Positions 1,653 to 62,137 of a stretch of DNA of 64,000 bases are shown here, one piece after another. This stretch comes from Candidatus Omnitrophota bacterium (GTDB lineage: Bacteria > Omnitrophota > Gorgyraeia > Aquiviventales > Aquiviventaceae). The stretch covers positions 22,464 to 86,463 of the forward strand of contig JAHFGV010000001.1 of assembly GCA_023247255.1 (NCBI GenBank), in the 5' to 3' direction. Positions within the stretch are counted from its first letter, which is position 1, and every line of letters begins with the position of its first letter. The position numbers and the translations under genes were made by a program. The notes under the pieces are model-generated. The model was not told the origin of the DNA. It did no database searches and was given only the letters and a program-made list of their open reading frames with translations.

Positions 1653-3524
1653 TTATGCCAAGATGCCTGTTTCCAACCAAGTCATCTTACCGTCGAGGAA
1701 GTTCTGGGTCAGTTGATAGGATTGATGGTCATCGTTGTGAGCCATACCCTTCCATGCTTGCGCGATTTGACGTCGGGCCAAGCGGCAGAAGACGTCGGCT
1801 AACTGCTCGGGGCTTGAATCCGATACGTTCTGAGACAGCATGGCCTGGGCTTTTGAGCAGGCAGCCATCATGACGAACAGGTAGCTTCCCACATCGACGA
1901 GCCTGGCCAAGAGTTGTTGCTGATCGGCAAGGCGCATTTGATAGCGCAAGGCGCTATGAAAAAGGGTACGGGCGAGTTTATGGCTGGTCTGTTCCACAAA
2001 CTGCATATGCCTGGCCAAAGGCTCAGGCAGACGATGAGCGAGACTGATCCCTTTCCAGGAACACCATTGTTGGGGATACCAGACTGCGTAATGCAGGCCT
2101 GCTCCCCAGGTGGTTTGGAGTCTGTGGGCGAGGCTCTGTCTTTGTTTCAACAAACTTGCCAGAATCCGCAAGTGGGCATCGAGCGCTTCACGTGCGATGA
2201 ATAGCCGCATGATCTCACTGGTGCCCTCGATGATGCGATTGATTCGAGCATCCCGCATCATACGCTCGACAGGCTCCGGGGGTTCACCACGCGCGCGCAG
2301 GGAGGGCGCAGTTTCGTAGCCACGCCCACCGCGAATCTGGACGGTGGCATCGACGATACGCCAGCAGGCTTCGGAGCAGAACAATTTAGCCATGGCGGCT
2401 TCGAGTCGAATGTCGATCGTCTTTCGATCGACCAGAGAAGATACCAGCCAGACCATGGCGTCCATAGCAAACGTCGTCGCTGCGATCTCAGCGATTTGTA
2501 CGGCAATGGCCTGGTGCCTGCCGATCGGTTTGCCCCATTGTTGGCGCTGTTGTGCCCATGGCCGGATGATTTGAAGACAGCGTTTTGCCGTTCCAACAGA
2601 AGCAGCAGGAATTGCGATACGACCCGCATTCAATGTGGTTAATGCCAGCTTCAAGCCGAGTCCCAGTCCCCAAAGGATGTGGGACTTGGGTATTCGGACG
2701 TTGTGAAAACGCAGGACGCCGTTTTGGATCCCTTTCAGACCCATGAAGTCGCAACGGTGTACGACTTCAAACCCGGGCATGGATCGCTCCACGATGAAAG
2801 CCGTGATCTGTTTGCGCTCCTTGCCCCCGATTGTAACAGAAGGTGTCCTTGCCATGACGATGACTACCTCAGCCACAGGACCATTGGTACACCAGAGCTT
2901 TTCTCCGCTGAGCAGATAGTATTGCCCATCTTCAATGGGGGTCGCTGTCGTCATCATGTTGGCCGGATCTGACCCGACTTCTGGCTCCGTCAAAGCAAAG
3001 GCAGAGATCGTTCCGGCAGCCAGCCGCGGCAGGAATTGACGTTTCTGTTGCTCCGTTCCAAAGAGCATGAGGGGTTGGGGGGCGCCGATGCTTTGATGAG
3101 CACTGAGCCAAACCGTCGTGGACCCACAAAAGCTTCCCAGAAGGGCGATCACCCGATTGTAATTGGTCTGGGACATCTCTAGCCCGCCGTATGCCTTCGG
3201 AATCTTCATTCCGAAACATCCCAGCCGCGCGAGCCCCTCAATGACCGTGGCGGGGATTTCTCCTGTTCGATCGATTTCATCAGGATCCACCGAGGACTTG
3301 AGGAATGCGCTCAACTCGGCGATGAAGGTGTCGCCGATCTGGCGGTCCTGAGGATTTTGTTCAGGATAGGGAAAGATAATATCCGTGCGTACTCGTCCCA
3401 TAAACAAATCGGCAACGACGCTGGGATAGTGCCACTCTGTTTGTCGAGCCGCCTCTGTTACCTCAAGCGCTTCAGGGGATCCTGACCGAAGCAACGGATG
3501 AGAATCTGGAGTTGGATTCATCAA
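1653..3524 (-). CDS. Acyl-CoA dehydrogenase (long form, ~620 aa)
   Basis: 623 aa ORF; ACAD N/M/C domains (GAPQPLMLFGTEQQKRQFLPRLA, FALTEPEVGSD, C-terminal extension); tandem with fadD. Confidence 0.85.
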   Translation of the reverse strand: MMNPTPDSHPLLRSGSPEALEVTEAARQTEWHYPSVVADLFMGRVRTDIIFPYPEQNPQDRQIGDTFIAELSAFLKSSVDPDEIDRTGEIPATVIEGLARLGCFGMKIPKAYGGLEMSQTNYNRVIALLGSFCGSTTVWLSAHQSIGAPQPLMLFGTEQQKRQFLPRLAAGTISAFALTEPEVGSDPANMMTTATPIEDGQYYLLSGEKLWCTNGPVAEVVIVMARTPSVTIGGKERKQITAFIVERSMPGFEVVHRCDFMGLKGIQNGVLRFHNVRIPKSHILWGLGLGLKLALTTLNAGRIAIPAASVGTAKRCLQIIRPWAQQRQQWGKPIGRHQAIAVQIAEIAATTFAMDAMVWLVSSLVDRKTIDIRLEAAMAKLFCSEACWRIVDATVQIRGGRGYETAPSLRARGEPPEPVERMMRDARINRIIEGTSEIMRLFIAREALDAHLRILASLLKQRQSLAHRLQTTWGAGLHYAVWYPQQWCSWKGISLAHRLPEPLARHMQFVEQTSHKLARTLFHSALRYQMRLADQQQLLARLVDVGSYLFVMMAACSKAQAMLSQNVSDSSPEQLADVFCRLARRQIAQAWKGMAHNDDHQSYQLTQNFLDGKMTWLETGILA

Positions 3525-4585: not shown

Positions 4586-5443
4586 TCAGCGATCCTTGAA
4601 TTGGGGCTGGCGTTTTTCACGGAACGCCCGGAGGCCCTCCCGACTGTCTTCGCTCTGCGCAACCACGCCAAAGGCCTCTGCTTCCAGAGCCAAGCCATCC
4701 TCCAACGAACGATCTGCTCCCTTTTCAATAGCGCGTAGCGATTGGGTTACGGCAACCATGCCTTTCGCTGCGATTTTCCTTGCCAGATCCTTGGCGGCTT
4801 TGAGGACTTGACCCTGAGCGACTACGAGGTTTACCAATCCCACACGGTAGGCTTCCTGTGCGGAAAATAGGTCGCCGGTCAGAATCCACTCAATCGCTTT
4901 TGCCTTTCCAATCAGGCGAGGGAGTCGTTGGGTCCCTCCCCATCCCGGTATAATGCCTAGAGTGACTTCGGGTTGGCCGAATCGGACACGGTCTCCGCTG
5001 ATTCGTAAATGGCAGGACATTGCTAGTTCCAGTCCTCCTCCCAGACAGACTCCATTGATCGCGGCAATCACGGGTTTGTCCGACCGCTGTAATTTCAGAA
5101 AGACCGATTGGCCCAAGGATGCCATTTGCTTGGCCTCATCTACCGAAGCAATCTGACTCATTTCTTTCAAATCAGCACCGGCCACAAAAGCCAGCGACCC
5201 TGCGCCGGTGACGATGATGACTTTGCTTGCGGTTTCCGTTTGAAGGCTGTCTAACGCCTGCCCGAGTTCGTTTAACGTCTGCCGGTTCAAGGCGTTGACC
5301 GGACGATGATCAATCGTCACAATTCCCACCCGATCTTCCACGGTTACTTTCACACATTCTCCTGAGTTCAAGGCTGTCATGTCATAGGGTCCACGTTTTA
5401 TTTCGGATTTAGGATGGCAAATTGCGGATTGAAAAGAAATCAA
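4586..5443 (-). CDS. Enoyl-CoA hydratase/crotonase
   Basis: AAINGVCLGGGLELAMSCHLRI, crotonase fold signature. Confidence 0.9.
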   Translation of the reverse strand: MISFQSAICHPKSEIKRGPYDMTALNSGECVKVTVEDRVGIVTIDHRPVNALNRQTLNELGQALDSLQTETASKVIIVTGAGSLAFVAGADLKEMSQIASVDEAKQMASLGQSVFLKLQRSDKPVIAAINGVCLGGGLELAMSCHLRISGDRVRFGQPEVTLGIIPGWGGTQRLPRLIGKAKAIEWILTGDLFSAQEAYRVGLVNLVVAQGQVLKAAKDLARKIAAKGMVAVTQSLRAIEKGADRSLEDGLALEAEAFGVVAQSEDSREGLRAFREKRQPQFKDR

Positions 5444-5446
5444 GAG

Positions 5447-6667
5447 TCATGGGTAGTCAAAGAAGCCTTTCTTTGTCTGTTTGCCTAGATGTCCGGCAGC
5501 TACCTTTCGCTTCAACAAAGGCGACGGCCAGAACCGATCCCCGAATAGCTGGGTCAAGCGCTCCAGTTCCGACAGGACGTTTTGCAGCCCGATTTCATCG
5601 GCGTAATGAAGAATGCCTCCCTTGGATTGGGGAAAGCCTAATCCTGCGATCACAGCAAGATCGACGTCAGACGCTGTGCAGACTTGTTCTTCCAGACAAC
5701 GGATAGCCTCGTTGATCATCGGCAGGATGAGTCGTTTGGCTGAATATTCCTTCGGTCCGCGCCAGGAAGCTTGGAGTTGTTGCAGGATGCCTTCTAGCTG
5801 TGGATCGGACTCAGCCGAGCGCTCGCCATAGAGATAGAAGCCAGCACCTGATTTCACGCCATAACGCTTCAGGGCGGCAAGGCGTTCCCAGATCGCCGCC
5901 GGACGCATCCGTGGACCGTAAGCGTCCTGGAGGATGTTCACCACTTCACGGCAGACGTCAAAACCCAGGCTATCGACCAAAGTAAAGGGCCCCATGGGAA
6001 ACCCGAAAGCAACGATGTCCTCATCGATCTGGCGAGAGGAAGCAGCCCCCTCCTGAACACAGTAGGCGGCTTCATTGAGATAAGGCATGAGGATACGATT
6101 GACGAGAAAACCGGGGCATTCATTGACACGGATCGGTATCTTACGCAGGCTCTCGGCAAAAGTCATCACATCCGCAACCGTTTCATCGGAAGTCTCCAAG
6201 CCGGGAATCACCTCGACGAGTTTCATGATATGTGCGGGGTAAAAGAAGTGCATGCCGATTACTTTGTGCGGACGCTTGGTCACGCTACCCAATGCACAGA
6301 TCGACAGCGAGGAGGTGTTCGAGGCCAAGATGGCCGCTTCGGGGCTTTTTGCATCCAACTCTCGGAAGATCTGCCCTTTGAGATCGAGCCGCTCCGGTAC
6401 CGCTTCGATGACGAGATCAACATCTTTAAACGCTGCGTAGTCTGTCACGCCAGTGACTAGACTGAGTTTCTGCTCCATCTCATCGGCGGTCATCTTTCCT
6501 CGATCCACACGCCGTTTGTAGATGGAACGGACCACCGATAGCCCCTTATCGACCAAGGGCTGGTTGATATCTTTTAAGAGAACCGGGATTCCACTGAAGC
6601 TGATCACTTGAGCGATCTCAGCACCCATCGCCCCGGCACCCACCACAGCAGTCTTGTAAATATACAT
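5447..6667 (-). CDS. 3-hydroxyacyl-CoA dehydrogenase (with duplicated C-terminal 3HCDH domain)
   Basis: N-terminal AVVGAGAMGAEIAQV NAD-binding, 406 aa. Confidence 0.9.
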   Translation of the reverse strand: MYIYKTAVVGAGAMGAEIAQVISFSGIPVLLKDINQPLVDKGLSVVRSIYKRRVDRGKMTADEMEQKLSLVTGVTDYAAFKDVDLVIEAVPERLDLKGQIFRELDAKSPEAAILASNTSSLSICALGSVTKRPHKVIGMHFFYPAHIMKLVEVIPGLETSDETVADVMTFAESLRKIPIRVNECPGFLVNRILMPYLNEAAYCVQEGAASSRQIDEDIVAFGFPMGPFTLVDSLGFDVCREVVNILQDAYGPRMRPAAIWERLAALKRYGVKSGAGFYLYGERSAESDPQLEGILQQLQASWRGPKEYSAKRLILPMINEAIRCLEEQVCTASDVDLAVIAGLGFPQSKGGILHYADEIGLQNVLSELERLTQLFGDRFWPSPLLKRKVAAGHLGKQTKKGFFDYP

Positions 6668-7884: not shown

Positions 7885-10152
7885 TTATCGCCCAGTGTAC
7901 TGGTCTTGTACGGGCTTGTCAACGGAGAGCTCCCGCAGACCGGCGATGCGTTTGATCTCCGGCAGATAGGCCATGGCGATTTCTTCCCCTCGACGGATGA
8001 ATTTCTCCGGGCTGAAAAACTCCAGCCAGTGAGAATCCGGTACCGTGGGACGCAAGGTCAGATCGGCCTCACGGCAGGAGATTTCCGCAATCTGGTATTC
8101 CATCCACTGCATGGAGCGCATGATGACATCGAAAACCAGAGGAGAAACAGCCTGTATGAGTTCGTGGCGAAGCCAGACCAAGAAGCGGATGGGAAAACTT
8201 CGCGAAGCCAGCTGCGCCTCACGCTGCTGACGCCGCTGCTGCAGCTTTTGACGGTGCATCCTGAGTTCCTCTATGTTGGGAAAAACGTTGACGGCGATCA
8301 CACGATTCGCCCCCGCTTGTTTAAGGACACTGACCGGAATGGGATTGACGACTCCTCCATCCAGGCAAATATCTCCACCAAACCGTATCGGTTTGAAAAT
8401 GCCCGGGATGGATACCGAGGCACGGACCGCCTCTGCCAGGGATCCGGAGTCGATGATCACTTCTTCCCGGGTCATCGGGTTGGCGGCCACGATTTTTACA
8501 GGAATCCAAGTATCCTCAAAAGTTCTGTTCTGGAAATCTGCCTGGAGTCTTGCCATTAACTGAGCACCCTGAATGGGACCTCCGGATAATGGCCCGAGGA
8601 TCAAACCCATGATGACACACACGAAACTGGCCAGCAGCGCTGTCCAGATTCCGGCGATCGGCCAGACGACCAGTCCCATTACCACGGCGACCACGACACT
8701 TACCAAGGGCACCTGCACGTCGAGCAGAAAGAGTTTGTTGATATCCCACGGATGCTTGAATCTCAATGCCATGTGTTCGATCTCTTCCACGCTACGACCC
8801 GAAGCCCACAAGCCGCCGATCAGTGCACCGATGCTTGAGCCTGCAATAATGTCGATCGGGATTTTCTCGCGTTCAAGTACTTTAAGCACCCCGATATGAG
8901 CCAATCCCAGAGCGGCTCCAGAGCCGAGAGCCAGTCCCACAAGGCCACCGCTTAGTTTTCGCGCAACCCGTTGGACGGTCAGCGCGTAAGCGGATCGACG
9001 TTCCTCCAAAAGCTGAGCCAAGCTTTCAATAGTCATGGCATCCGCCAAAGGAAGGAAAGGAAGAGTGAACGTGACCGGACGGCCCAATTGTTCCGCGATC
9101 CCCACATCTCGACCTCGCGGCGGACCTCCTAAGAGCATGCTCAAAAAATTCGTTTTCTCCTCTGAATCTTGCAACTGATTGAGAACAACCTGGACGCGTT
9201 GCGTGGTGGTGCTCACCACAGAGGTGATTTGATGGATCAGCATTCGCGTTTGCGCCAAATGGTCGGAATCAGGATTAGTCACCACGTAGATGAGATCGGA
9301 CTGAGTGAGTGCTTTCAAGACCGGCGGGGTGGCTTCGGCAGGCAGATCGACCAGGACGTAGTGGAAGCGTTTGGTCAATGCGTTCAACAGGGGAGCGACG
9401 GTGTGTTCTCCTTGGGAATCAGAAAGCAGCTCCCCGGCACTCAACAGCAGAAATCCCAGTGGGTGGATGTCTAGGACATTGTCTAATTGCTCTTCCAAAA
9501 CTAGATTGGTTAGCGTGGTTTTAATCTCGGACGAAGGACGACTAGACTTAAAACGCCACGCCCAATGATGGGGGTCATTGGTCATATTGACCAAAACGAT
9601 CTGGCGATTGGTCTCGTGCTTCAGCATAGCTGCCAAGGAAACGGCAAACAATGTGCAGCCTACTCCTCGGGTGGCGCTGGTGATAGAGGCGATCGTCGTA
9701 TCGGTGGGTTCAGGAAGGTCTTCGCGGGTTCGCAGACGCTTGGAAAGCAATCGGCTGAGGTAGAGTACTAAAGACGGGATACGGTTAATGACTTCGTTGA
9801 AATCTTCCTTCTTCAATTCAAGCACCAGGGTATCATTGAGTGCCTGGACCGTTGCCGAGTGCTTTTCTCCTGTCAGTAAAGAGATCTCTCCAAAAGAATC
9901 TCCGTTATAGAGAATGGCCAAGGTCTTCTCAACATGATGGGACAAAGAGAAAACACGCAGACGGCCCGAGCTGACGATATAAAAAGAGTCCGCAGGATCC
10001 CCCTCGCGGTAAATCACTTCTTCCTTCTTATATTCCACCAGGCGGGTGCGTTTTGCAATCAGGTACAGCTGTTGATCCGTGCAAGCAGCAAACAGGGGGA
10101 TGCGCTTAAGTATTACGATCTTGTCTTGCCAGTGCGACGACTCAAGCGTCAT
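7885..10152 (-). CDS. Cyclic-nucleotide-binding domain / patatin-like phospholipase (NTE-like) with internal TM segment and degenerate ParA/MinD-like middle domain
   Basis: N-terminal cNMP-binding (FAACTDQQLYLIA...GDPADSFYIVSSGRLRV); patatin GxSxG (GSSIG) and DGG motif (DGGVVNPIP); hydrophobic stretch LVSVVVAVVMGLVVWPIAGIW; middle region has Walker-A-like TRGVGCT lacking Lys. Confidence 0.8.
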   Translation of the reverse strand: MTLESSHWQDKIVILKRIPLFAACTDQQLYLIAKRTRLVEYKKEEVIYREGDPADSFYIVSSGRLRVFSLSHHVEKTLAILYNGDSFGEISLLTGEKHSATVQALNDTLVLELKKEDFNEVINRIPSLVLYLSRLLSKRLRTREDLPEPTDTTIASITSATRGVGCTLFAVSLAAMLKHETNRQIVLVNMTNDPHHWAWRFKSSRPSSEIKTTLTNLVLEEQLDNVLDIHPLGFLLLSAGELLSDSQGEHTVAPLLNALTKRFHYVLVDLPAEATPPVLKALTQSDLIYVVTNPDSDHLAQTRMLIHQITSVVSTTTQRVQVVLNQLQDSEEKTNFLSMLLGGPPRGRDVGIAEQLGRPVTFTLPFLPLADAMTIESLAQLLEERRSAYALTVQRVARKLSGGLVGLALGSGAALGLAHIGVLKVLEREKIPIDIIAGSSIGALIGGLWASGRSVEEIEHMALRFKHPWDINKLFLLDVQVPLVSVVVAVVMGLVVWPIAGIWTALLASFVCVIMGLILGPLSGGPIQGAQLMARLQADFQNRTFEDTWIPVKIVAANPMTREEVIIDSGSLAEAVRASVSIPGIFKPIRFGGDICLDGGVVNPIPVSVLKQAGANRVIAVNVFPNIEELRMHRQKLQQRRQQREAQLASRSFPIRFLVWLRHELIQAVSPLVFDVIMRSMQWMEYQIAEISCREADLTLRPTVPDSHWLEFFSPEKFIRRGEEIAMAYLPEIKRIAGLRELSVDKPVQDQYTGR

Positions 10153-13773: not shown

Positions 13774-14107
13774 GGTCTCAATCACCTCCTTCTTGTAGAC
13801 TTTTGTCTAGATCTAAAACCCCGTTCATCCTCCTAGTGAACGGTTGACAGCCAGAATAACTATACCACAGTCTAGTTATTTTTTCAAATATTACTTAAAA
13901 TATGATTAATATACAGACATATGTTGCCTTATTTTAACCCTGATGACCCAGAGTCTGACGGAGTCAAGACTGCGCCTAGTACTGTGTCATGGTCGATGTG
14001 TCATGAGTCATGGAAAGCAAAAGGAGCACTTTGGCCATGCTTGAGATGGCTGTTTATTTTCTGCTTTTTCATGACACATGACACAATATCGACAAGAGGC
14101 GGACGAG

Positions 14108-18090: not shown

Positions 18091-18789
18091 TTATGAGATC
18101 TTCGCTTCAGCGAGCAAGTAACGGGGAATCGTGATGGAATCCACCTGCAACTTTCCCGTGTGTGCTGGCCCTTGTTGGATCAGGCAGCCTTTTTTAGGTA
18201 AACCAAAGGTAACGGTCAGATTCGCGTTGACCGCGCATCCCTGCGGGAGGCCTGTGTCTGCGTTGAGTCCGGATGGGATGTCTACCGCGACGATAGGTTT
18301 GCCTGAACGGTTCATCCGATGGATGAGACTGGTGATGGGTTCCCGGACGTTTCCCCGGACACCAATGCCCAACAAGGCGTCGACGATAAGACTGCAGGTG
18401 TTCCAGACATCTTCCAGGTTGCTGAGAGCCTCAAGGGAGGGACATTCCAGAAGCGATAGGCCGAGCTGTCTAAGAATGTAGGCGTATATAGCAGGCTCCT
18501 CTCGCAATTGCCCGATCTTTCCAAGGATAGCGATTCGTAAATCATATCCCCAATTATGCAGATGACGCGCTGCAGCTAAGCCGTCCCCTCCGTTATATCC
18601 TGTCCCGCAACAGATGAAAAGGGACTGGTCAGATACGGACGGATCTTCAGAACGTGGGGATAAATCGACAACAGCCTTGGCGATCGCTAAGCCCGCATGC
18701 TCCATCAGCAAAAGTCGAGGAATACCTAGATTTTCGATAGCCGCCTGGTCGATCTTTTGCATCTGCTCGACTGAGATGGCTGCTACCAT
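18091..18789 (-). CDS. nnr: NAD(P)H-hydrate epimerase (YjeF N-terminal domain)
   Basis: LFICCGTGYNGGDGLAAARHL. Confidence 0.85.
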   Translation of the reverse strand: MVAAISVEQMQKIDQAAIENLGIPRLLLMEHAGLAIAKAVVDLSPRSEDPSVSDQSLFICCGTGYNGGDGLAAARHLHNWGYDLRIAILGKIGQLREEPAIYAYILRQLGLSLLECPSLEALSNLEDVWNTCSLIVDALLGIGVRGNVREPITSLIHRMNRSGKPIVAVDIPSGLNADTGLPQGCAVNANLTVTFGLPKKGCLIQQGPAHTGKLQVDSITIPRYLLAEAKIS

Positions 18790-18919
18790 CGTTAGACGAC
18801 GGATTTCGAAACGTCAATGAGTTTGGAGGAAAAGGGAAAGGTTGTGATCGGCTCTAGCAGGCTGCGGGAAAATACCCATTTGCTTAAAGCTCGTGATACG
18901 GGAAGCGGGGCAAGTTTTT

Positions 18920-19000
18920 AATTTCGGATTTGGGATTGCGAATTGTGGATTGGAAAGAAATCAAAAATCCGAAATCCACAATCGAAAATCGACAATTCCA
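18920..19000 (+). repeat. Palindromic element family 2 (tandem degenerate octamers GGATTGNG x4, spacer, reverse complement x4)
   Basis: aatttcggatttgggattgcgaattgtggattgg...aatccgaaatccacaatcgaaaatcgacaattcc; homologous to 37512-37598 and to a half-copy inside hisF. Confidence 0.7.
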
Positions 19001-19074
19001 AATGCCCCCTGTCTCATGCCCCTTGCCCCACACTAACGCCCAGAGTCGATTTGAATGGAGCACTGGTACGGCCA

Positions 19075-19320
19075 CTACTTCGAAGGACTTGCAAGTGCCG
19101 TGGCTGATGCTGCAGCAGTGTCCTCAGGTTTTTTTTCCTGAGTGATTGCTTTCCTTGATTTGATCTTGGCCTGCTTAATCTTGGGAAGGCCGAACATCGA
19201 ACGGCCTTCCGTCCAGTGGCCCTGGGACATCAGGTGACGCACGCGTTCATGTCGTTTTATGACATTCCGCCGTAAGCCGGCCGTGCCTTTCTTAGATCGT
19301 AATGAAGAATGGATCGACAT
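19075..19320 (-). CDS. Small basic hypothetical protein (81 aa, Lys/Arg-rich)
   Basis: ORF-track ORF; composition only, no confident family. Confidence 0.4.
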   Translation of the reverse strand: MSIHSSLRSKKGTAGLRRNVIKRHERVRHLMSQGHWTEGRSMFGLPKIKQAKIKSRKAITQEKKPEDTAAASATALASPSK

Positions 19321-36675: not shown

Positions 36676-37419
36676 TTATCGGTTGAAAAGATGGCCGGCT
36701 ACGGTTTTAAGGCTGACGCAGCCGTGGCTGCCTACAATCACGTGGTCTAGGACCTCGATCCCCAACAGATGTCCGGCTGCCACCAAGCGTTTGGTGATTC
36801 GCAGATCATGATCCGAAGGATCCGGATCACCCGAAGGATGATTATGCCCTAAGATTACTGCTGCAGCCGAGGCGCTGATTGCTTCTTTGAACAGCTCTCG
36901 CGGATGCACGATGGTAGCCGAGAGGCTTCCTGTCGCGATGGTGCTCGCTCGAATTAAATGATGCCGATTGTCCAAAAGCAGGATGACGAAAAACTCTTTC
37001 TTTTTATGCGCCAGAATCGGACGCAAAATGTCAGCGGCTTTTTCCGAGCTGTCGATGGCGGGATGCAGGCCATTGGACGTTTGCGCAACCCGTCGAGAGA
37101 GTTCGGCGGCGGCTTTAAGCTGAATGGCTTTGGAAGAACCGATGCCATGAACGCAAGAGAGTTGTTCCACCGAAGCTTCTGCGATTCCGCGCAAAGATCC
37201 AAAAGTCGCCAGCAATCGCTGGGCACTCATGAGCACCGACTCCCTGGCGACTCCCCTGCCCAGGATACAAGCTAACAGCTCCTGTTCGGAAAGGGCCTCC
37301 GCTCCCAGTCGAGCCAGACGTTCCCGGGGACGTTCCGACTCAGGCAAATCTCGAATCGTCAAGGATCTGTGATGCGGCATCTTACCATAGACTGGGGCTT
37401 TACAAAACGTGTCTTCCAT
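36676..37419 (-). CDS. radC: DNA repair protein RadC (JAMM/MPN)
   Basis: HNHPSGDPDPSDHD JAMM motif, HhH N-terminus. Confidence 0.92.
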   Translation of the reverse strand: MEDTFCKAPVYGKMPHHRSLTIRDLPESERPRERLARLGAEALSEQELLACILGRGVARESVLMSAQRLLATFGSLRGIAEASVEQLSCVHGIGSSKAIQLKAAAELSRRVAQTSNGLHPAIDSSEKAADILRPILAHKKKEFFVILLLDNRHHLIRASTIATGSLSATIVHPRELFKEAISASAAAVILGHNHPSGDPDPSDHDLRITKRLVAAGHLLGIEVLDHVIVGSHGCVSLKTVAGHLFNR

Positions 37420-37511
37420 AGCCAGAAAAACTACAACCCGAATTCAGCATTTTACATTTCCCCTTGCGCTACCAGGCTGCGGAAAAATCCATTTTGGTTC
37501 TGGGCTGAGAG

Positions 37512-37598
37512 AATCTTCGATTGTAGATTTTCGATCTTCGATTGGAAAACATTGATCTGCCAACAAATCGACAATCGACGATTGACAATCGACAATTC
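37512..37598 (+). repeat. Palindromic element family 2, second copy
   Basis: cgattgtagattttcgatcttcgattgg...aatcgacaatcgacgattgacaatcgacaattcg. Confidence 0.7.
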
Positions 37599-37614
37599 GT
37601 TGGCATTCCAGAAC

Positions 37615-39324
37615 CTACCAGGCTCCTCCCCCACCCCCACCACCCCCGCCACCCGAAAATCCGCCTCCTCCAGAGCTGCCTCCTCCAAAGCCACTGGTGT
37701 CTGATCGAGGAGCAGAAGTAAAAGAATGTCCCATGGACGATGTGGCTTGAGTAATGTCCTGACCTAATTGACGTGCGGAAAAATGGTCCCAGGAACCGAC
37801 GTACCAAGATGGCGGCTGGGTATAAAGTCCTTCAAAAACCCGTGTCCATCGATCGGCGACGCCCAATGCCAAGGCATAAGGCAGAAACCGTTCAAACAGG
37901 CTCGGATCGTTGATTTGCCGCAAACGATCTTGGTCGGTGCGTCGGAGGAATTCCAAGAATCCAAAGATGTGCTCGGTGGTTTGCGCGCCTTTGAGTGTTC
38001 GCCGGGGCATGAATAGGCCAAAGACGATGATGATCAGCCCACAGAGGGCCGAGGCAATCTTGGAGGTAATGGTGTCGATTCCCCGCGAATGCTCAAGTGC
38101 TTGAAGTCCGAAAAATAGGGAAATCCCTAACGCCCAGCCGAAAATATGATAGCGGCTGCGAATACGGTCGGGATGGCTGTCCAAATACCCAGCCTCGATC
38201 AGTCCCTGATACAACTGATCTCGAATCTTGGGCAGTTTCTGGTAAAACACCTCATTGAGATCCGAAAGGTGTATAGAGGTTTCTGAAACGTCGAAGATTC
38301 CTTTCAAAAGCATTCGCTCATGCGGCTTAAGATGCGGGTCCTGTTCCCAGGGTTTTAAGCTGACGAGTTGATAGTCCCAGCCCCCGAATCGTTTCGCCTT
38401 GATTATTCGAAGATAGCCGCGGACGGCCAAATCGATGACGGTGGCGGTGATGTCTCTCAGGTTAACACGCTGATCGATCAAGGTTCCCAATTCGGCGGGA
38501 CTTACATCCTTGGGGGGCTCATACTGAACCATTGGGGAAGTTTCCAGACGAACCTCCCGTCCGCGTGCCGACCAGAGTGCCGTCATCAGAGAAAGCACAA
38601 GCAATACAAGACCATACATCCAATTATCTTCAATCCACCAACGGAAGATACGCCATCCTGAAGGGGGTTGAACCAGGCCCTTTTCCCAGGCTACCGCAGC
38701 CGTTAGCCCTTCATAAGGCTCAAGCCCTTCAGAAGGTTCAATCACCACGTGATCCACAAAGGTGTGCAGATGCTGCGTATGCGCGGTGGACCCGTAGCTT
38801 CCCAGATAGGCGATAGCCCTGAGTTCTTTAACCGTGTCTGGCAAGCGGATTTCCCCGCGTGCCTTTCGAATGGGTACCGCCCACTCGTTACCCGTGAGAT
38901 TCCAATAGCATTCATCATGGTCCGGGAAAAAGCGAACCGCCCCGCGCTTGACCTTGTAGATGATTCGGTAAGTTTGCCGACCGCTCAGTGTCAAATCAGG
39001 ATCTCCGATTCGGATACGATGGTAAGGTCCCGTGGATTCCGAGTGATACTTCAAAGCCCTGCCCGAGTCGTCGGTTATCTCCTCAATCTCTAGACGCATC
39101 CTGAAGGGTTGTCCGGCTCGATCCCTAGCATGAACTGGGATGTCCCGGTAAATACCGTGGCGGGCTTCTTGTTTAAAGTCTGCCAGAATCGTTTCCGTGA
39201 TCGTTGCGGTCGCATCCCGATGTATCTGGACTTGTGTGTCGAAGCTAGCGATTTCCCAAGCCTGTGCCGAGCCTGGAAACAAAAGCACCCCAATAATATT
39301 CAACCACCAGCGACTGAAAATCAT
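37615..39324 (-). CDS. DUF2207-domain membrane protein with Gly-rich C-terminal tail
   Basis: Signal peptide, TM segments, C-terminal [18 protein letters not shown]; paired with LemA as usual. Confidence 0.8.
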
Positions 39325-50556: not shown

Positions 50557-50574
50557 GGATAACCTCTAAATGGG

Positions 50575-50690
50575 ATTTGCGCGTTGGCGCGAGTGTGCAT
50601 GTTAACGTTTCTACCTGTGCAATGGGACAGCTTGAAGCTTGTTAACTCGCGCACTCGCAAACCCACTAACGCGCTAACTCGCCAACACGC
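50575..50690 (-). promoter_or_regulatory. Structured trpE-trpG intergenic element (long imperfect inverted repeat)
   Basis: gcgcgttggcgcgagtgtgcatgttaac ... gttaactcgcgcactcgc ... ctcgccaacacgc. Confidence 0.35.
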
Positions 50691-52186
50691 TAACCCTTTC
50701 GTCGTTCCGCCAACTCAATGGCTTGGAGCATGCCTTTGGCCTTGTTGATCGTCTCTTGATATTCCCGATCGGGTTGGGAATCCGCGACGATACCGGCACC
50801 TGCTTGAATATAAGCGTGACGATCTTTAACCAGGATGGTGCGGATCGTGATGCACGCATCGAGGTTTCCGGAGAAGCTGAAATAGCCGACGGCTCCGGCG
50901 TAAATGCCCCGATCTTGCCGCTCCAACTGGGCAATAATTTCCATAGCCCTGACTTTAGGAGCACCGGTGACGGTTCCTGCCGGGAACGTGGCACGCAAGG
51001 CGTCGAAAGCTGTTTTTCCTGAACGCAGCTTACCTGTCACCCCGCTGACTAGATGCAGAACATGCGAGTATTTCTCAACGATCATCAGCTCCGGGGTGCG
51101 AACCGATCCTACCTGGGCCACTCGACCCAGATCGTTGCGTCCCAAATCCACGAGCATGAGATGTTCGGCGCGTTCCTTGGGACTTGTGCGCAACTGATGA
51201 ATCAGGCGCTCATCCTCACGTTCACTCTTACCCCTGGGTCGAGTGCCGGCAATGGGCCGGGTTTCCAGAAGACCTTCTTCGCAGCGGATGAGCATTTCCG
51301 GAGAAGATCCGACCAGAGACAGGTTTCCTAGACGTAAAAAGAACATATAGGGAGACGGATTGAGCGATCGCAGGGAACGGTAAACTTTCAAGGGTTCGCA
51401 ATCCAAGCGTCTCTCAAAACGTTGAGAAAGAACGACCTGGATGATCTCACCTGAGCGGATCGCTTGCTTGGCCTGGTGGACCATGCTCACAAACTCTTCA
51501 CGACTCATGCTGGACTGAAAGGGCTTCGAGACAGAGGGAATACTTTGTTTTCTCCGGGTATCTGGAAGGCTTCGGGAAAGTTTCCGGGCCATGGCGTGTA
51601 TGGTTTCAACCGCCTTTCGGTAGGCAAGCCGCGGCGCATGCGTCTGGGTTTGGGCGTTGGCCACCAACAATAGCTTATGTTGGGCATGGTCGAAAATGGC
51701 CATTGTCTGGGTCAGCATCAGCATGATGTCCGGCAGGCGCAAGTCATTTTCTCGATGGGTAGGCAGACGTTCCAAGAATCGCACGACGTTATATCCGAGA
51801 TAGCCGACCCATCCTCCGCAAAACCGCGGCAGTCCCTCAACAGGCACAAAACGAATGGGTGCCGTCAGGCGTTCGATTTCCTTGAGGGGATCCGGCACAT
51901 TTTCAAAACGCCGCGTTTGGCGAGTGCCCTGCCCGAATGTTGTGAGATCGACGTTTCTGCCGCTGCTGGTGAAAAGCATCTGCGGGCTGCTACCCAGGAA
52001 TGAAAAACGCGCGACTTTTTCTGTTCCCTCTACCGATTCGAGCAGATAGCTGAGCCGGCCGTCGTCCAGTTTCATAAACGCGCTCACAGGCGTTTCCAAA
52101 TCAGCCAGCATCGTCCCGTAGACAGGAATAACATTTCCCTGTTTTGCTAAACGGATGAACTCAACTTCTGATGGTTGAATCTTCAT
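50690..52186 (-). CDS. trpE: Anthranilate synthase component I
   Basis: LSYLLESVEG N-terminus, chorismate-binding C-terminus GAVGYFSFSG. Confidence 0.95.
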   Translation of the reverse strand: MKIQPSEVEFIRLAKQGNVIPVYGTMLADLETPVSAFMKLDDGRLSYLLESVEGTEKVARFSFLGSSPQMLFTSSGRNVDLTTFGQGTRQTRRFENVPDPLKEIERLTAPIRFVPVEGLPRFCGGWVGYLGYNVVRFLERLPTHRENDLRLPDIMLMLTQTMAIFDHAQHKLLLVANAQTQTHAPRLAYRKAVETIHAMARKLSRSLPDTRRKQSIPSVSKPFQSSMSREEFVSMVHQAKQAIRSGEIIQVVLSQRFERRLDCEPLKVYRSLRSLNPSPYMFFLRLGNLSLVGSSPEMLIRCEEGLLETRPIAGTRPRGKSEREDERLIHQLRTSPKERAEHLMLVDLGRNDLGRVAQVGSVRTPELMIVEKYSHVLHLVSGVTGKLRSGKTAFDALRATFPAGTVTGAPKVRAMEIIAQLERQDRGIYAGAVGYFSFSGNLDACITIRTILVKDRHAYIQAGAGIVADSQPDREYQETINKAKGMLQAIELAERRKG

Positions 52187-54093: not shown

Positions 54094-54524
54094 TTTGAAA
54101 CTCCTTTGTACACTTTCTTTGGATCGAAAACCTTTCGACTCTGGACTTGTAATCTTCCTAAATGGGAGAGAATCCGAAAATAGCAACTGAAGTATCCGGC
54201 GTGGCAGGCGGCGACGCGCTGGCGGACGAAAAACACAAGGGATTTGCCTTCACAGTCAACGGCTATACTTTGGATGAACTGAATGTGTCCAGAGGTCTCT
54301 CCTTTACGCATGAGTGTCTGTTGGGAGCGTCGGAAAAGATAAACGGTTCCTGTCTGTAGGCTCTTACGCAAAGCTTCACGGTTGAGGTAGCACAGGGTCA
54401 GAACTTGCTTGCTCTTGGCATCTTGGATGATTGTTGGAATCAGTTCCTCATCGGAGAACTTCAAAACCGAAACGAGTTGGCGGAAACCGGCTAAGGCTTT
54501 GCCGCGCTGAAGGTTTGTCTTCAT
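54090..54524 (-). CDS. hisI: Phosphoribosyl-AMP cyclohydrolase
   Basis: [23 protein letters not shown]...[11 protein letters not shown]. Confidence 0.9.
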
Positions 54525-55309
54525 ATCCGAACCGTCAGTCCTTTAGAGGCAATATAACGTTTCACTTCCGCAATCGTAAGCTCTCCAAAATGAAACAAAG
54601 AGGCGGCCAAGGCGGCGTCGGCCTTGCCCTGTGTGAGTGCTTTTACGAAGTGCTCCGGATTACCGGCACCGCCGGATGCGATCACAGGAATCGAGACCGC
54701 TTCAGAGACGGCTTTCGTCAATGCCACGTCATAGCCCATTTTCGTGCCGTCTCGATCCATACTGGTGAGGAGAATCTCACCCGCTCCCATTTCTTGCGCT
54801 TCCTTCGCCCATTCCACAGCGTCCTTCCCTGTAGGATTCCTTCCTCCGTGGGTGTAGACTTTCCATTCGGATTGCGGATTGTGAATTGTGGGTTGTGGAT
54901 CTGAATGACGGCGCTTGGCATCGATGGCTACGACGATACACTGAGCGCCGAATCTTTCAGACGCTTCGCGGATAAAAATGGGATTCTCAAGCGCGCTTGT
55001 GTTGATTGAGACCTTATCGGCTCCCGCTTTCAACAGAGCGCGGATGTCCTCCAGCGTGCGAATTCCTCCACCCACCGTCAGGGGCATGAAGGCAACGGAT
55101 GCGGTTTTCGCCACTACGTCGATGAGAATCGGCCGCTGCTCAAAACTCGCGGTGATGTCGAGAAAGACAAGCTCATCGGCCCCCGCATCGTTGTAAGCCT
55201 TGGCCGCATCGACTGGGTCTCCAGCATCCTTGAGGCTCACGAACCGCACGCCTTTGATGATGCGTCCGCGATCTACATCGAGACAAGGAATGATGCGTTT
55301 AGCTAGCAT
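54521..55309 (-). CDS. hisF: Imidazole glycerol phosphate synthase cyclase subunit, with a short in-frame family-2 half-repeat
   Basis: [16 protein letters not shown]...; extra [14 protein letters not shown] is encoded by cggattgcggattgtgaattgtgggttgtgg at 54866-54907. Confidence 0.93.
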
Positions 55310-55328
55310 ATTAGCGCGTAGCTATCTG

Positions 55329-56054
55329 CTAAGTCCCAAGTGCTTGGATGGCTTGCTTGAGATCAATCTGTTTCTCATACAACGCCTTGCCGACGATGGC
55401 TCCCATTAAGCCACGTTCTTCCAAATTCTTGAGCTGCTGCAGATCTTTCAACGATGCGATTCCTCCAGATGCAATCAGCTGTTTGGGGCCGACGTCCAAG
55501 ATTTCTTCCAGCAGGGAAAGATTAGGCCCTTGGAGCATTCCGTCGCGGCTGACATCCGTGCAAATCAGCGTCTCGACTCCTAGCATGACGACACTACGTG
55601 CCAGAGCCGATGGTTTCAGGGTGGTTGAACGCATCCAACCTCTGGCAACGACCTGCCCGGCCCTTGCGTCAATGGCGACGGCGATCTTGGAGCCGTAACG
55701 GTCAGCAGCTTCCTGAACGAAAACCGGATCCTCACAGGCTTTGGTGCCCAGAACCACTCGGGCAGCCCCTGAGGCAAAAGCCTGGGTGAGGGCTTGCTTA
55801 GTGCGGATTCCCCCGCTCAATTCGACCGAAGCATTGCATGAACGGATGATCCGCTCAGCCAGGGGAAGATTGACGTATGTCCCCTCGAAGGCGCCGTTAA
55901 GATCCACAACGTGCAACCAGCAAGCGCCTTGAGCTACCCACTGCTTAGCGATGGCTATCGGATCTTTGGAATAGACGACGACTTGATCCCGTTTGCCTTG
56001 GGAGAGCCGCACCACTTGTCCATCGAGCAAGTCAATCGCTGGAATAATAATCAT
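55329..56054 (-). CDS. hisA: ProFAR isomerase
   Basis: MIIIPAIDLLDGQVVRL. Confidence 0.93.
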   Translation of the reverse strand: MIIIPAIDLLDGQVVRLSQGKRDQVVVYSKDPIAIAKQWVAQGACWLHVVDLNGAFEGTYVNLPLAERIIRSCNASVELSGGIRTKQALTQAFASGAARVVLGTKACEDPVFVQEAADRYGSKIAVAIDARAGQVVARGWMRSTTLKPSALARSVVMLGVETLICTDVSRDGMLQGPNLSLLEEILDVGPKQLIASGGIASLKDLQQLKNLEERGLMGAIVGKALYEKQIDLKQAIQALGT

Positions 56055-56692
56055 AGAGAAATGAAATTTCTGAGAAGCTGCAATCCCAGTGTCTGACTTT
56101 TTTCAGGATGAAACTGCGTGGCGTAGAGATTTTCCCGCCACACCATCGATGCAAACCGGACGCCATAATCTGTTTCCAGTATGACTACCGATCGGTCGGC
56201 TGGTTCAGGATAATAGGAATGGACGAAGTACACAAAACTTCCATCCGGTATCCCCTCCAGCAGTGGACAGGTCTTTTGCTTTTGCTGATTGCTGTAAATC
56301 TGATTCCATCCCATGTGGGGAATTTTAAGGGGCGAGGGGCGCGAGGCGAGGGGCGAGGTTTTTGCACGGAAGCGTTTAACAACGCCTCTCAAGACTCCGA
56401 GGCCAGATGAGGCTTCTCCTTCTTCACTGCGTTCAAAAAGCAATTGCAACCCAAGACAGATGCCTAAGTAAGGAACGCCACGCGTGATCGCTGATGTAAT
56501 CGGTCCAATCAGCCCACGTGAGGATAACTCCTGCATGGCTGCTGGAAAAGCGCCCACCCCTGGCAGAATGAGTTTGTCGGCCTTCGCCACTTCAACCGGA
56601 TTGCTTGAGACACGGACAGACGCCCCGAGTGCCTCCAACGCTTTGGAGACGCTGCGCAAATTTCCCATACCGTAATCGATGATGACAATCAT
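56051..56692 (-). CDS. hisH: Imidazole glycerol phosphate synthase glutaminase subunit, with in-frame G-rich insert
   Basis: MIVIIDYGMGNLRSV, GICLGLQLL; insert AKTSPLASRPSPL corresponds to ggggcgaggggcgcgaggcgaggggcgagg at 56321-56365. Confidence 0.9.
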   Translation of the reverse strand: MIVIIDYGMGNLRSVSKALEALGASVRVSSNPVEVAKADKLILPGVGAFPAAMQELSSRGLIGPITSAITRGVPYLGICLGLQLLFERSEEGEASSGLGVLRGVVKRFRAKTSPLASRPSPLKIPHMGWNQIYSNQQKQKTCPLLEGIPDGSFVYFVHSYYPEPADRSVVILETDYGVRFASMVWRENLYATQFHPEKSQTLGLQLLRNFISL

Positions 56693-56700
56693 ATACGGGG

Positions 56701-56745
56701 CAGGGGGCAAGGGGCGCGGGGCATGGGAGCCTGTCCCCTGTCTCG
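56701..56745 (+). repeat. G-quadruplex-type motif in the hisB-hisH spacer, related to the hisH insert
   Basis: GGGGGcaaGGGGcgcGGGGcatGGG (four G-runs, loops 3 nt). Confidence 0.5.
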
Positions 56746-56759
56746 TGCCCCTTGGCTCT

Positions 56760-57362
56760 TCATAGGTGGCCCTTCGAGGAGGGGATTCCTTTTACCCGCG
56801 GGTTGCGCGTTACAGCTTGGCAAAGGGCGCGTCCCAGGGCTTTGAAGACCGCCTCAAGGACATGGTGGAAGTCGCTGCCAGAGAGGACGTCAATGTGAAT
56901 CGTTAGTTTCGCGGCCCTTGCGAAGGACTCGAGGAAATGCTCGGCATCCCCCCATTGATAAGAAGTGCTGGATGAAAGGCCTCCTTTGGAACGACTGCTG
57001 CGCGCATCCCTGAAGGCTACCTTGGGCCTTCCGGAGATGTCTAGAACCACACGCGCTAGGGCTTCGTCCATGGGAACGTAAGCACAACCAAAACGCTCAA
57101 TCCCGACACGTTTTCCCAACGTTTGGTCAAGTGCTTCTCCCAGAACAAGTCCAATATCTTCATTCGTGTGGTGCAAGTCGATATCCAAATCACCCTGCGC
57201 TTGGATGTTCAGATCCAACAATCCGTGGACGCCCAGAAGGGTGAGCATGTGATTCAGGAATGGGATGCCTGTTTTGACAGAAGCCTTCCCGGCTCCATCT
57301 AAGTTGAGTGTCACACGAATGTTCGTTTCTTTACTCTTGCGTATTATGTTCGCTTGTCTCAT
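56760..57362 (-). CDS. hisB: Imidazoleglycerol-phosphate dehydratase
   Basis: RKSKETNIRVTLNLDG...HHTNEDIGLVLG. Confidence 0.93.
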   Translation of the reverse strand: MRQANIIRKSKETNIRVTLNLDGAGKASVKTGIPFLNHMLTLLGVHGLLDLNIQAQGDLDIDLHHTNEDIGLVLGEALDQTLGKRVGIERFGCAYVPMDEALARVVLDISGRPKVAFRDARSSRSKGGLSSSTSYQWGDAEHFLESFARAAKLTIHIDVLSGSDFHHVLEAVFKALGRALCQAVTRNPRVKGIPSSKGHL

Positions 57363-57420
57363 CTAAACGGTCTACTCTCTCGTTTTTTGGACACTGGGCC
57401 ACTCAGGCTCACCTTGCCAT

Positions 57421-58641
57421 TTACGTTAGCCTGACCTTCACCGCATCGAAATGGCGCGGAAGGCCTTCGATGGTGGTTAACTGCTCCAGAGGCTCCCGGA
57501 ACCGCTCCAAGGCCTTTTTCGTATAGCTGATCACATGGGTACGTCGGATAAAGTCATCGAGACCCAATCCTGAGAATGCCCGGGCAGATCCTCCGGTCGG
57601 CAACACATGGCTGGGGCCAGCGATGTAGTCTCCCACAGTCACGGGTGAATAAGATCCCAGGAATATGGCGCCTGCGTGCGTGATCCGTTTGGCCAGCTTC
57701 TGCGGCGAACGCACCATGATTTCAAGATGCTCAGGAGCTAGGCTATTGGCGACGGCAATCGCTTCCTGTTGATTCTTGACGACGACGCAATAACCGCCGG
57801 GTATTTGTTTTCTCGCCATTTTGGCGAGTGCTTTGGAGGTTGTGATCAGAAATCCGAGTCCGCCGGCATGTTCTGTTTCTCCCAGAAGATCGGCCAACAC
57901 ATATTCCGGATTCGCGTGGCGGTCGGCAATGACTCCGATCTCAGAAGGACCGGCAATGGTATCGACGTCTACAAACCCAAAGACCTGGCGTTTGGCTTCC
58001 GCCACAAAAGCATTGCCGGGTCCGACGATCTTGTCCACCTTGGGGACGGTCTTCGTTCCAAAAGCAAAGGCTGCGATCGCTTGAGCGCCTCCCATTTTAT
58101 AGATTTCATCCACGCCCAGAAGACTCGCTACTGCCAAGATGTGCGGGTCGACGCTTCCATCCTTACGCGGAGGGGTCGCCAAGATGATCCGCTTGACGCC
58201 TGCTCTCTGGGCAGGAATCACCGTCATGTAAACGGTGGAAACCAGACTGGCGGTGCCACCCGGGATGTAAATGCCCACGCGCTCAATGGGATCGAATTTC
58301 TCACCCAGAAGCACCCCGTCTCCATCAACCAGCCGCACCGGCTTTAAGCGTGAACGTCCGTAAAAAACCTGAACGTTTTGTATCGCGCTCTTCAGACGCA
58401 GGGCAAATTTAGGATCCAAATGTTGAAAAGCTCCGGAAATCTCCGCCTCAGTGACTCGAAGTTGCTTAGAACTGAGCTTGACTTTGTCGAAGCGTCGGGT
58501 GTAGCGCAAGAGTGCTTCATCGCCATGTTTGTAGATAGAGTCAACGATGTCCCGGACCCGCTGTTCAATCCGTTGCTTGCGCACAAGCTGGCGCGTACAG
58601 AGTCGTTGCCATTCCTTGCTTGTCGTTGAGATGATCTTCAT
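57421..58641 (-). CDS. hisD: Histidinol dehydrogenase
   Basis: 406 aa, GPGNAFVAEAKRQV, zinc-binding motifs. Confidence 0.93.
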   Translation of the reverse strand: MKIISTTSKEWQRLCTRQLVRKQRIEQRVRDIVDSIYKHGDEALLRYTRRFDKVKLSSKQLRVTEAEISGAFQHLDPKFALRLKSAIQNVQVFYGRSRLKPVRLVDGDGVLLGEKFDPIERVGIYIPGGTASLVSTVYMTVIPAQRAGVKRIILATPPRKDGSVDPHILAVASLLGVDEIYKMGGAQAIAAFAFGTKTVPKVDKIVGPGNAFVAEAKRQVFGFVDVDTIAGPSEIGVIADRHANPEYVLADLLGETEHAGGLGFLITTSKALAKMARKQIPGGYCVVVKNQQEAIAVANSLAPEHLEIMVRSPQKLAKRITHAGAIFLGSYSPVTVGDYIAGPSHVLPTGGSARAFSGLGLDDFIRRTHVISYTKKALERFREPLEQLTTIEGLPRHFDAVKVRLT

Positions 58642-61944: not shown

Positions 61945-62137
61945 CCTCAGCCGAATCGAGCTGCACCTTGCATCTGCGCCTTTTTCAGCAACCTGCTAGC
62001 GAAGTTGGGATTGCTATTTTCACTAGTCACTCGTGTTGTATCGAGTTTCATATGTTTGTGCCATGGGAGAACAGCAGACCTTTAATCTTCCCTAACACAT
62101 GATACATCGACCTGACACAGTACTTGCTAAGCACTGG

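Follow-up and report, generated by a model that had tools for sequence, protein, structure and literature searches.

Two short inverted repeats in the genome of an uncultured Candidatus Omnitrophota bacterium, each just downstream of a minus-strand gene, raise the question of what kind of element can lie between the genes of operons and also, as a single arm, in frame within a conserved enzyme of histidine biosynthesis. Here, we examine these repeats in a 64-kb stretch of the genome (the window), compare them with loci of related Omnitrophota and of other phyla (denoted by L numbers), and consider how they may have arisen.

Structure and position of the intergenic hairpins

The sequence-only reading had described two inverted-repeat elements of ~85 bp, and both are borne out: each forms an imperfect hairpin, with inverted arms of 31-33 nt that are 71-76% complementary and lie 21-22 nt apart, and each folds better than shuffled sequences (Table 1). 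In the 18921 element, a left arm at ~18921-18953 (GGATTTG, GGATTGC, GAATTGT, GGATTGG) is followed by a loop at ~18954-18964 and a right arm at ~18958/18965-19003 (AATCCGA, AATCCAC, AATCGAA, AATCGAC, AATTCC), for which TRF reports a period of 7 with 6.3 copies at 18958-19002. The arms of the 37511 element (33 nt, 76% complementary) occupy 37511-37543, with TCGATTG-type units, and 37566-37598, with AATCGAC x 4.4; here, too, TRF gives a period of 7, at 37513-37542 (4.3 copies) and 37566-37596 (4.4 copies). Each arm thus described holds ~4.5 degenerate heptamers (GGATTGN / NCAATCC). The predicted RNA fold of the 18921 element reaches -28.1 kcal/mol on the plus strand (z = -3.84 against shuffles) and -23.7 kcal/mol on the minus strand (z = -2.49), and that of the 37511 element reaches -27.4 kcal/mol (z = -1.94) and -31.5 kcal/mol (z = -3.32), respectively.

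Table 1. Repeat features of the window, of the adjoining locus L090, and of the hisF loop in relatives.
Feature	Location	Strand	Sequence or state	Detected by
Family A, full element	18921..19003	.		TRF, inverted-repeat scan, fold
Family A, diverged full element	37511..37598	.		TRF, inverted-repeat scan, fold
Family A, partial copy (left arm and loop)	5400..5444	.	ATTTCGGATTTAGGATGGCAAATTGCGGATTGAAAAGAAATCAAG	Pattern search, alignment
Family A, single arm within hisF (54521-55309, minus), in frame	54863..54901	-		TRF, translation, alignment
Adjoining motif	18854..18873	-	ATTTTCCCGCAGCCTGCTAG (minus sense)	
Adjoining motif, second copy	37469..37488	-	ATTTTTCCGCAGCCTGGTAG	
Adjoining motif, further copy	61868-61887	-		
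Adjoining motif, further copy	61980-61999	+		
Adjoining motif, further copy	L090 1856-1875			
hisF loop, relative	L083		(AATCCGC) x 4.3, perfect	
hisF loop, relative	L085		(CGGAATG)4 then (ACTCCGC)4, fold -38.4 kcal/mol	
hisF loop, relative	L086		(GTGACCA)4 ... (CTCGCCA)4, fold -38.2 kcal/mol	
hisF loop, relative	L084		CAGACAT blocks	
hisF loop, relative	L211		(GTTCGAA)4.4 then (CAATCCG)4.6, arrays not complementary	
hisF loop, relatives	L087, L088		Bare DNA	

The same reading had divided the arms into octamers, a segmentation that proved to be out of register. At a strict threshold, a lag scan of the window returned five arrays at lag 7, against 0-1 for lags 5, 6 and 8-11, and at a looser threshold, it returned eight, against 0-3 at other lags within 4-12. 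With TRF giving a period of 7 on every arm, this excess identifies the units as heptamers. The proposal that the two elements form one family holds for their relationship, as they share the outer end AATCGACAATTC, but not for their sequence, since the 37511 element has diverged toward TCGATTG / AATCGAC units.

Both elements do lie 3' of minus-strand genes, as had been noticed. The 18921 element is found 72 nt past the stop (19075) of an 81-aa TIGR04137 'small basic protein' gene (64.4 bits, cut-off 50), ahead of a YjeF_N gene (start 18789) that is also on the minus strand, while the 37511 element begins 17 nt past the DUF2207 stop (37615), with RadC (start 37419) downstream. Every intergenic copy lies 0-72 nt past a stop, and the genes that flank these copies therefore place all of them between co-directional genes, in a window where 59 of the 69 long ORFs are on the minus strand. 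The DUF2207 gene itself has a glycine-rich tail (37628-37654) encoded by a period-6/9 repeat that abuts the 37511 heptamer element. Rfam covariance models returned nothing at gathering score in the whole window; at E ≤ 1, they returned nothing for 18780-19090 and only far-sub-threshold generic hairpin matches for 37410-37630. A promoter scan at the elements yielded only two weak promoter-like matches, inside the arms at 37512, and these we regard as by-products of the repeat sequence.

A heptamer family probably dispersed by copying

A degenerate trimer of the unit (GATTGNNGATTGNNGATTG, up to 3 mismatches) has 20 matches against 2.9 expected, a number reached by none of 100 shuffles. The units run head to tail, as in heptameric SSR (STRR-type) repeats, and a related unit occurs above chance at four dispersed loci in 64 kb (family A), three of which are in co-directional spacers near start or stop codons, with arrays of about four units. 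Among these, the partial copy at 5400-5444 is ~85% identical to 18921-18968 (as counted on the alignment), over a stretch that takes in the non-repetitive loop. This copy directly adjoins the stop codon (5447-5449) of a 3-hydroxyacyl-CoA dehydrogenase gene, and an enoyl-CoA hydratase gene follows downstream; homology to the hydratase starts only at ORF residue ~29, so the copy is intergenic. Further, the boundary (A)TTCGGATT is common to the hisF segment and to the 18921 and 5400 copies. These shared loops and ends indicate that the loci are related by copying and are not four independent slippage events, and on these sequences we infer a copying step between loci.

The genome sequence covered comprises the 64-kb window and ~10 kb beyond it (L090). 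Within these ~74 kb, we identified no mobilising enzyme, target-site duplication or donor copy, and L090 held no further heptamer array. A metagenome scan for the arm-loop junction GGATTGRAAAGAAATCAA returned 120 stretches and no further copy of the family; the sole match beyond chance (L110) was on a contig of 37% G+C with heptamer arrays of its own. An assembly artefact was considered and ruled out, as two independently assembled contigs, one from an ENA metagenome assembly and one from a Logan run assembly, are identical or near-identical to the window (1 mismatch over 19,480 nt and none over 12,613 nt). A look-up of the ORF at 1653-3524 gave no match, probably owing to a wrong start codon.

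Array size clusters tightly: over 37 arrays, the median is 4.4 copies, with 25 at 3.9-4.7 and six above 5. Lag-7 arrays occur at 7.8 per 100 kb in the window, at 16.1 per 100 kb in related Omnitrophota loci (a density biased toward the his operon) and at 1.37 per 100 kb in other phyla (75 loci, 1.3 Mb). Heptamer arrays are, hence, ~6-12 times denser here than in the other phyla sampled, with other lags near zero. The background for both array density and native loop length came from a HisF-alignment search of genome contigs, in which the matches listed were mostly from distant phyla and included one Omnitrophota locus (L023). The related Omnitrophota loci are enriched in octamer arrays as well (6.4 per 100 kb). 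Other phyla bear heptamer arrays as well, some of them inverted pairs (L037, L020, L046 and L082). Specifically, L037 (Blastocatellales; 6355-6399 and 9965-9996) carries CAATCCG / AATCCGC, a unit also seen in Omnitrophota HisF loops, with one array ending 5 nt before the L037 hisF start, and Halomonas L020 carries GGTGAGT x 15.4 facing TCACCAT x 6.7.

An in-frame copy in hisF

The hisF copy is a single C/A-rich arm on the sense strand (GATCCACAACCCACAATTCACAATCCGCAATCCGAA). Its 12 codons read GAT CCA CAA CCC ACA ATT CAC AAT CCG CAA TCC GAA, and TRF reports GGATTGT x 4.6 with a period of 7 at 54869-54900. The insert adds 11 residues to the HisF loop (residues 134-148), and an alignment with the solved HisF-LUCA (4evz) opens an 11-residue gap exactly at this point. 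In an AlphaFold2 model of HisF (mean pLDDT 81), residues 134-148 lie between strands E125-133 and E149-153 with no assigned secondary structure, and pLDDT falls below 50 at 138-145. This loop follows strand beta-5, which bears the catalytic Asp (D130 here), and is situated at the catalytic face of the barrel.

An in-frame half-copy adding ~10 aa had been suggested for hisF, and our comparison upholds it at ~11 aa: the segment is a genuine single-arm copy and is non-native, given the short loop of bare homologues, the gap against 4evz and its place in a low-confidence loop of the model. Neither finding that would have told against this reading was made. The family has a further copy at 5400, and the inserted hisF residues are far from universal, given that the loop is ≤ 6 aa in 34 of 120 homologues (typically RGAG or KGSG) and longer in the other 86. 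In one homologue that is 74% identical (P0016), the loop reads VSGSELRIPSS-HPQPAIHNPQLH, the second half of which nearly equals a 10-residue peptide of the window copy. The P0016 loop thus resembles a full-palindrome version of the insert, so that the window hisF copy plausibly descends from a two-arm element.

The HisF loop across Omnitrophota

The 120 homologues compared, at least 71% identical and nearly all either unnamed or labelled Omnitrophota or Omnitrophica, identify this loop as a hypervariable hot spot. Loop lengths have modes at 4, 9, 16 and 23 aa, with 4 aa being the length in bare homologues, and the modes are separated by steps of 7 aa; as 7 aa equals 21 nt, or three heptamers, no other step leaves the reading frame intact. 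Among loops 11 aa or longer, the peptides show 31.5% identity (210/667) at lag 7, against 5.5-8.8% for the other lags from 3 to 10. At the DNA level, syntenic loci of relatives carry unrelated heptamers at the same hisF site (Table 1), and the in-frame arrays of L083, L085, L086 and L211 are 100% matched. A neighbour-joining HisF tree from which the loop was left out shows bare loops interspersed among filled ones.

The in-frame array units are T-poor on the sense strand (~13% T over 17 arrays, by our own count), as would follow if stop codons and hydrophobic residues had to be avoided whichever of the three frames is read. The same requirement would account for hisF keeping the ACAATCC arm and not the GGATTGT arm. 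Long HisF inserts also occur in Nitrospirota and Nitrospinota loci (L010, L047 and L025), where they are not clearly heptamer-periodic. In an unclassified MAG (L035, 1382-1579), a 47-aa insert occupies the HisF loop that holds arrays in Omnitrophota and ends in an octamer array, (CTTCACCC) x 5, encoding LHPLTPSPLHPFTPSP.

Array hot spots in the his operon

Heptamer arrays are concentrated in the operon as a whole. The his operon (window 54521-58641) holds three of the seven array loci of the window in ~8% of its sequence, and in the relatives L083-L087 and L211, most arrays of each 20-kb locus are in or between his genes, a count biased by shared ancestry and by the choice of loci. The sites in relatives include the hisA 3' end, the hisA-hisF spacer and the hisI N-terminus, and in several genomes, spacers of the operon are filled by sister heptamer elements. 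Two more hot spots lie in HisH. At one (window 56326-56360), CCTCGCC units on the sense strand encode TSPLASRPSPL, which is absent in L084; at the other, after HMGWNQ, relatives carry arrays of AGACATC, AGACAGG, CAGAAGG or CAGCGAC. Unit sequences differ between genomes while recurring across genes within one genome: CAGACAT is found in both hisH and hisF of L084, TCCGCAC in both hisH and hisF of L085, and AGTGGCG/CGCCACT at the hisA end and in hisF of L086.

Outside the his genes, occupancy varies at orthologous sites as well. The DUF2207-RadC spacer, 195 nt in the window, is 35 nt in L088 and holds no element there, and L087 and L088, relatives with bare HisF, bear heptamer hairpins in other spacers. 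The L089 locus was without heptamer hairpins. Synteny between the window and its relatives is conserved over recA-htrA-recX-alaS-hisDBHAFI-trpEGD.

Several other repeat families were observed alongside family A. A second, G-rich heptamer family (GGGGCRN / CCCCTTG) occurs at 56693-56756, 56326-56360 and 19004-19035; a hairpin of this family fills the hisB-hisH spacer, the in-frame array encoding TSPLASRPSPL in hisH belongs to it, and a half copy (CCCCCTGTCTCATGCCCCTTGCCCC) that closely resembles 56733-56756 lies directly beside the 18921 element. A further heptamer hairpin at 13997-14085 (TGTGTCATGAGTCATGG ... CATGACACATGACACA) has arms that are 90% complementary and the unit CATGACA, which contains TGA and, thus, could not occupy a coding region in that orientation. 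An octamer inverted element (TAACNCGC; TRF periods 8 and 16) lies at 50570-50694 in the trpE-trpG spacer, with a related array, GTTAGCGA x 3.4, at L090 2517-2543, 10 kb beyond the window.

A motif adjoining both full hairpins

A separate motif, of the form (AAATGG..)ATTTTCCCGCAGCCTG(C/G)TAG and 20-26 nt long, accompanies both full elements (Table 1). The first copy lies ~45 nt downstream of the 18921 hairpin, with the next start codon 65 nt farther on, and may be part of a composite element or a repeat in its own right. The last 10 nt of the second copy, CTACCAGGCT (plus strand, 37469-37478), recur at 37615-37624, where the DUF2207 gene ends with its stop codon, so that direct repeats bracket the 37511 hairpin. 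An inverted pair of motif copies forms the ends of a 132-nt inverted-repeat element (61868-61999) between htrA and recX. The ATTTTCCCGCAGCCTG motif was not found in the loci of relatives; candidate identities for it are the end of a MITE, a duplicated gene end and a signal. Readings of the motif as a sigma-54 promoter, a sigma-70 promoter or a 7-codon mini-ORF (MDFSAAW*) were dropped, as the two copies differ in spacing and in frame.

Comparison with known repeats

Heptamers are the most over-represented class of long SSR in bacteria, and the Calothrix and Nostoc STRR repeats are of this heptameric type (PMC4692102). Those of Xanthomonas (GGGAATC) and Nostoc (GGGGAYT) prefer the gaps between co-directional ORFs and lie no more than 50 bp from a start or stop codon, with four units being favoured and inverted pairs occurring sometimes (PMC4692102). 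Beggiatoaceae have sets of TAACTGA heptamers, a few of which lie inside ORFs (PMC4679880). The elements described here share with these repeats the tandem 7-nt units, the several unit families per genome, the many dispersed loci, the prevalence of co-directional spacers near start or stop codons, the ~4 units per array and the occurrence of inverted pairs; further, GGATTGG/GGATTGN is a cyclic permutation of Nostoc GGGGATT. They differ in belonging to another phylum, the Omnitrophota, in inverted pairing being the rule rather than the exception, and in carrying copies in frame within conserved enzyme loops, at hot spots that different genomes share. Within the collection of papers searched, no report of such repeats in the phylum was found. 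Most units here are not G-rich, so that G-quadruplexes cannot explain the four-unit mode. The kind of repeat is already known, and what sets these copies apart is the repeated, in-frame occupation of the same enzyme loops and the dominant two-arm layout.

For the in-frame behaviour, the closest analogy is to the Rickettsia palindromic elements (RPEs; PMC1779305), with size, structure and turnover all being different. Like the repeats studied herein, RPEs are small and palindromic and occur both in intergenic DNA and, in frame, within housekeeping ORFs, to which they add a tolerated surface segment. They are reportedly 100-150 bp long (Ogata et al. 2000), with a conserved family consensus and no internal tandem structure. 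In contrast, our elements are 31-85 nt (36-69 nt in HisF), built of heptamers and turned over completely in sequence between related genomes, with no consensus across genomes. Nostoc SDRs are likewise very small elements in or next to heptamer arrays, with genome-specific families and suspected mobility. They are said to be non-repetitive units of 21-27 nt with a conserved fold that are inserted into heptamer arrays (Elhai et al. 2008), whereas here, the heptamer arrays themselves are the dispersed unit. REP, BIME and REPIN elements, associated with RAYT transposases (PMC3733652, PMC3116915, PMC3333891), are abundant short hairpin repeats in operon spacers for which, as here, mRNA stabilisation is plausible, and the layout of two inverted arms and a spacer resembles that of a REPIN. 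However, a REP is itself palindromic, carries a GTAG/CGTC tag and is extragenic by definition, while the arms described here are untagged tandem arrays that begin with ATTTCGG... or GAATCTTCG... and are also found inside genes.

Alternative explanations

One alternative is that the hairpins are selected RNA elements of polycistronic transcripts, serving as 3'-exonuclease barriers or RNase III-type processing sites that uncouple the stability of cistrons, as for E. coli REP/BIME. We consider this possible but unlikely. It fits the position of the intergenic copies, all between co-directional genes and 0-72 nt after a stop codon, the long stems, which beat shuffles on the transcribed strand (z = -2.49 and -3.32), and the sister elements that occupy his-operon spacers in several genomes. 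However, neither sequence nor presence is conserved at orthologous sites, single arms and non-complementary pairs are common (L211 and the hisF and 5400 copies), and an RNA function is needless for copies in coding loops. The narrower proposal, already made in the sequence-only reading, that the elements are Rho-independent terminators of the upstream genes is scarcely credible. Each hairpin does lie just 3' of a gene, but no T-run follows the stem on either strand (the tails are AAATTAAAAACTTGCC and TCTCTCAGCCCAG), a terminator scan had no match at either element, and the stems are A+T-rich and imperfect, as opposed to the G+C-rich stem directly before a U-tract that defines an intrinsic terminator. 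Equivalent elements also lie between his-operon genes and inside ORFs. With no U-tract and with positions inside operons and genes, these elements are, therefore, not intrinsic terminators. Binding sites, also suggested in the sequence-only reading, present a further option: each heptamer would engage one subunit of a protein on single-stranded RNA or DNA (for example, a cold-shock or S1-domain protein), resulting in translational or structural regulation. The regular 7-nt period, the uniform ~4-5 units and the closeness of arrays to start and stop codons agree with such a role, as does B. subtilis CspB, which is reported to bind heptamer direct repeats at one protein per repeat and with weak sequence specificity (cited in PMC4679880). 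Given that the unit sequence is not conserved across loci, families or genomes and that arrays are tolerated in enzyme loops, which argues against required binding, we judge this role to be very improbable.

The elements might also be MITE- or REP/REPIN-like and be moved by a transposase encoded elsewhere, with the heptamer period being a secondary feature of the arms. The copies share defined ends and a loop and can be partial, or present in one relative and absent in another, and the arms might be taken for terminal inverted repeats. The segment at 37479-37614 has a 10-nt direct repeat, CTACCAGGCT, on either side, and the adjoining motif forms the arms of the 132-nt element at 61868-61999. 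In addition, a split IS1595-family transposase gene (L090 4261-5149, its zinc-ribbon and DDE parts as two ORFs) lies ~6-10 kb past the window and is the only transposase seen near it. Against this, inspection by eye shows no direct repeat around the copies at 18921 and 5400, no related IS came to light, and each arm is a tandem array, not a palindrome, with no GTAG or CGTC at its start. The genes called in the window and L090 (~74 kb) include no RAYT (Y1/HUH) or IS200/605 gene. Further, the units differ wholly between genomes, even between neighbouring arrays, which a sequence-specific transposase would forbid. Movement by a transposase thus appears distinctly unlikely to us.

Origin and retention of the arrays

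We favour, with a probability of roughly 60%, the explanation that these are STRR-like heptameric SSR elements that have been dispersed by copying, reshaped by slippage and filtered by selection. The family is genome-specific, and an inverted pair able to form a hairpin is its usual layout. The arrays would be largely selfish or neutral DNA, with copies spread or homogenised within a genome via gene conversion between arrays or some transposition, and slipped-strand mispairing would renew their repeat structure. Selection would then keep only harmless copies, namely those in operon spacers and permissive surface loops. The copies tolerated in loops would be stop-free in three frames, T-poor on the sense strand and so hydrophilic, and would change in length only by three units. 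That copies are filtered in this way is borne out by the loop-length classes, which preserve the frame, and by the composition of the units. Once transcribed, the hairpins may, in the manner of REP elements, also happen to shield or mark the ends of mRNA, and by this analogy, a role in mRNA is possible. The turnover of arrays is demonstrably rapid, as seen in the intermixing of bare and filled loops on the HisF tree and in the element-free DUF2207-RadC spacer of L088.

Three observations sit uneasily with dispersal by copying followed by slippage. Array sizes cluster tightly near 4.4 copies, whereas simple slippage predicts broad lengths, which hints at a constraint or a templated process. In-frame arrays are perfect, even though single-unit slippage would shift the frame there and be lethal. 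Finally, the concentration in the his operon is not predicted by a purely neutral model. In light of the tight size mode, the perfect in-frame arrays and the his-operon concentration, we keep open the tentative and, on balance, unlikely idea that a sequence-independent process writes or copies arrays of fixed size (~4.5 heptamers, 31-33 nt, often as inverted pairs). On this idea, the process would time and again colonise the same permissive sites: the spacers of operons, a single loop of HisF and two loops of HisH. The sharing of units within genomes is also compatible with writing of this kind. If true, the arrays would represent a new class of micro-mobile element, or a repair or replication footprint, rather than passive products of slippage.

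For the origin of bacterial heptamer repeats and of their preference for about four units, the Omnitrophota offer a natural experiment, in which one loop of a universally conserved enzyme holds none, one or two unrelated arrays among close relatives, length changes in the HisF loop are forced into 21-nt steps, and dated events of gain, loss and replacement become usable for weighing slippage against copying. The four-unit preference known from Xanthomonas and Nostoc is independent of G-quadruplex potential. For annotators and modellers, the results correct a tempting mis-annotation of the hairpins as terminators and serve as a warning that 7-aa-periodic inserts in Omnitrophota proteins are repeat-derived.
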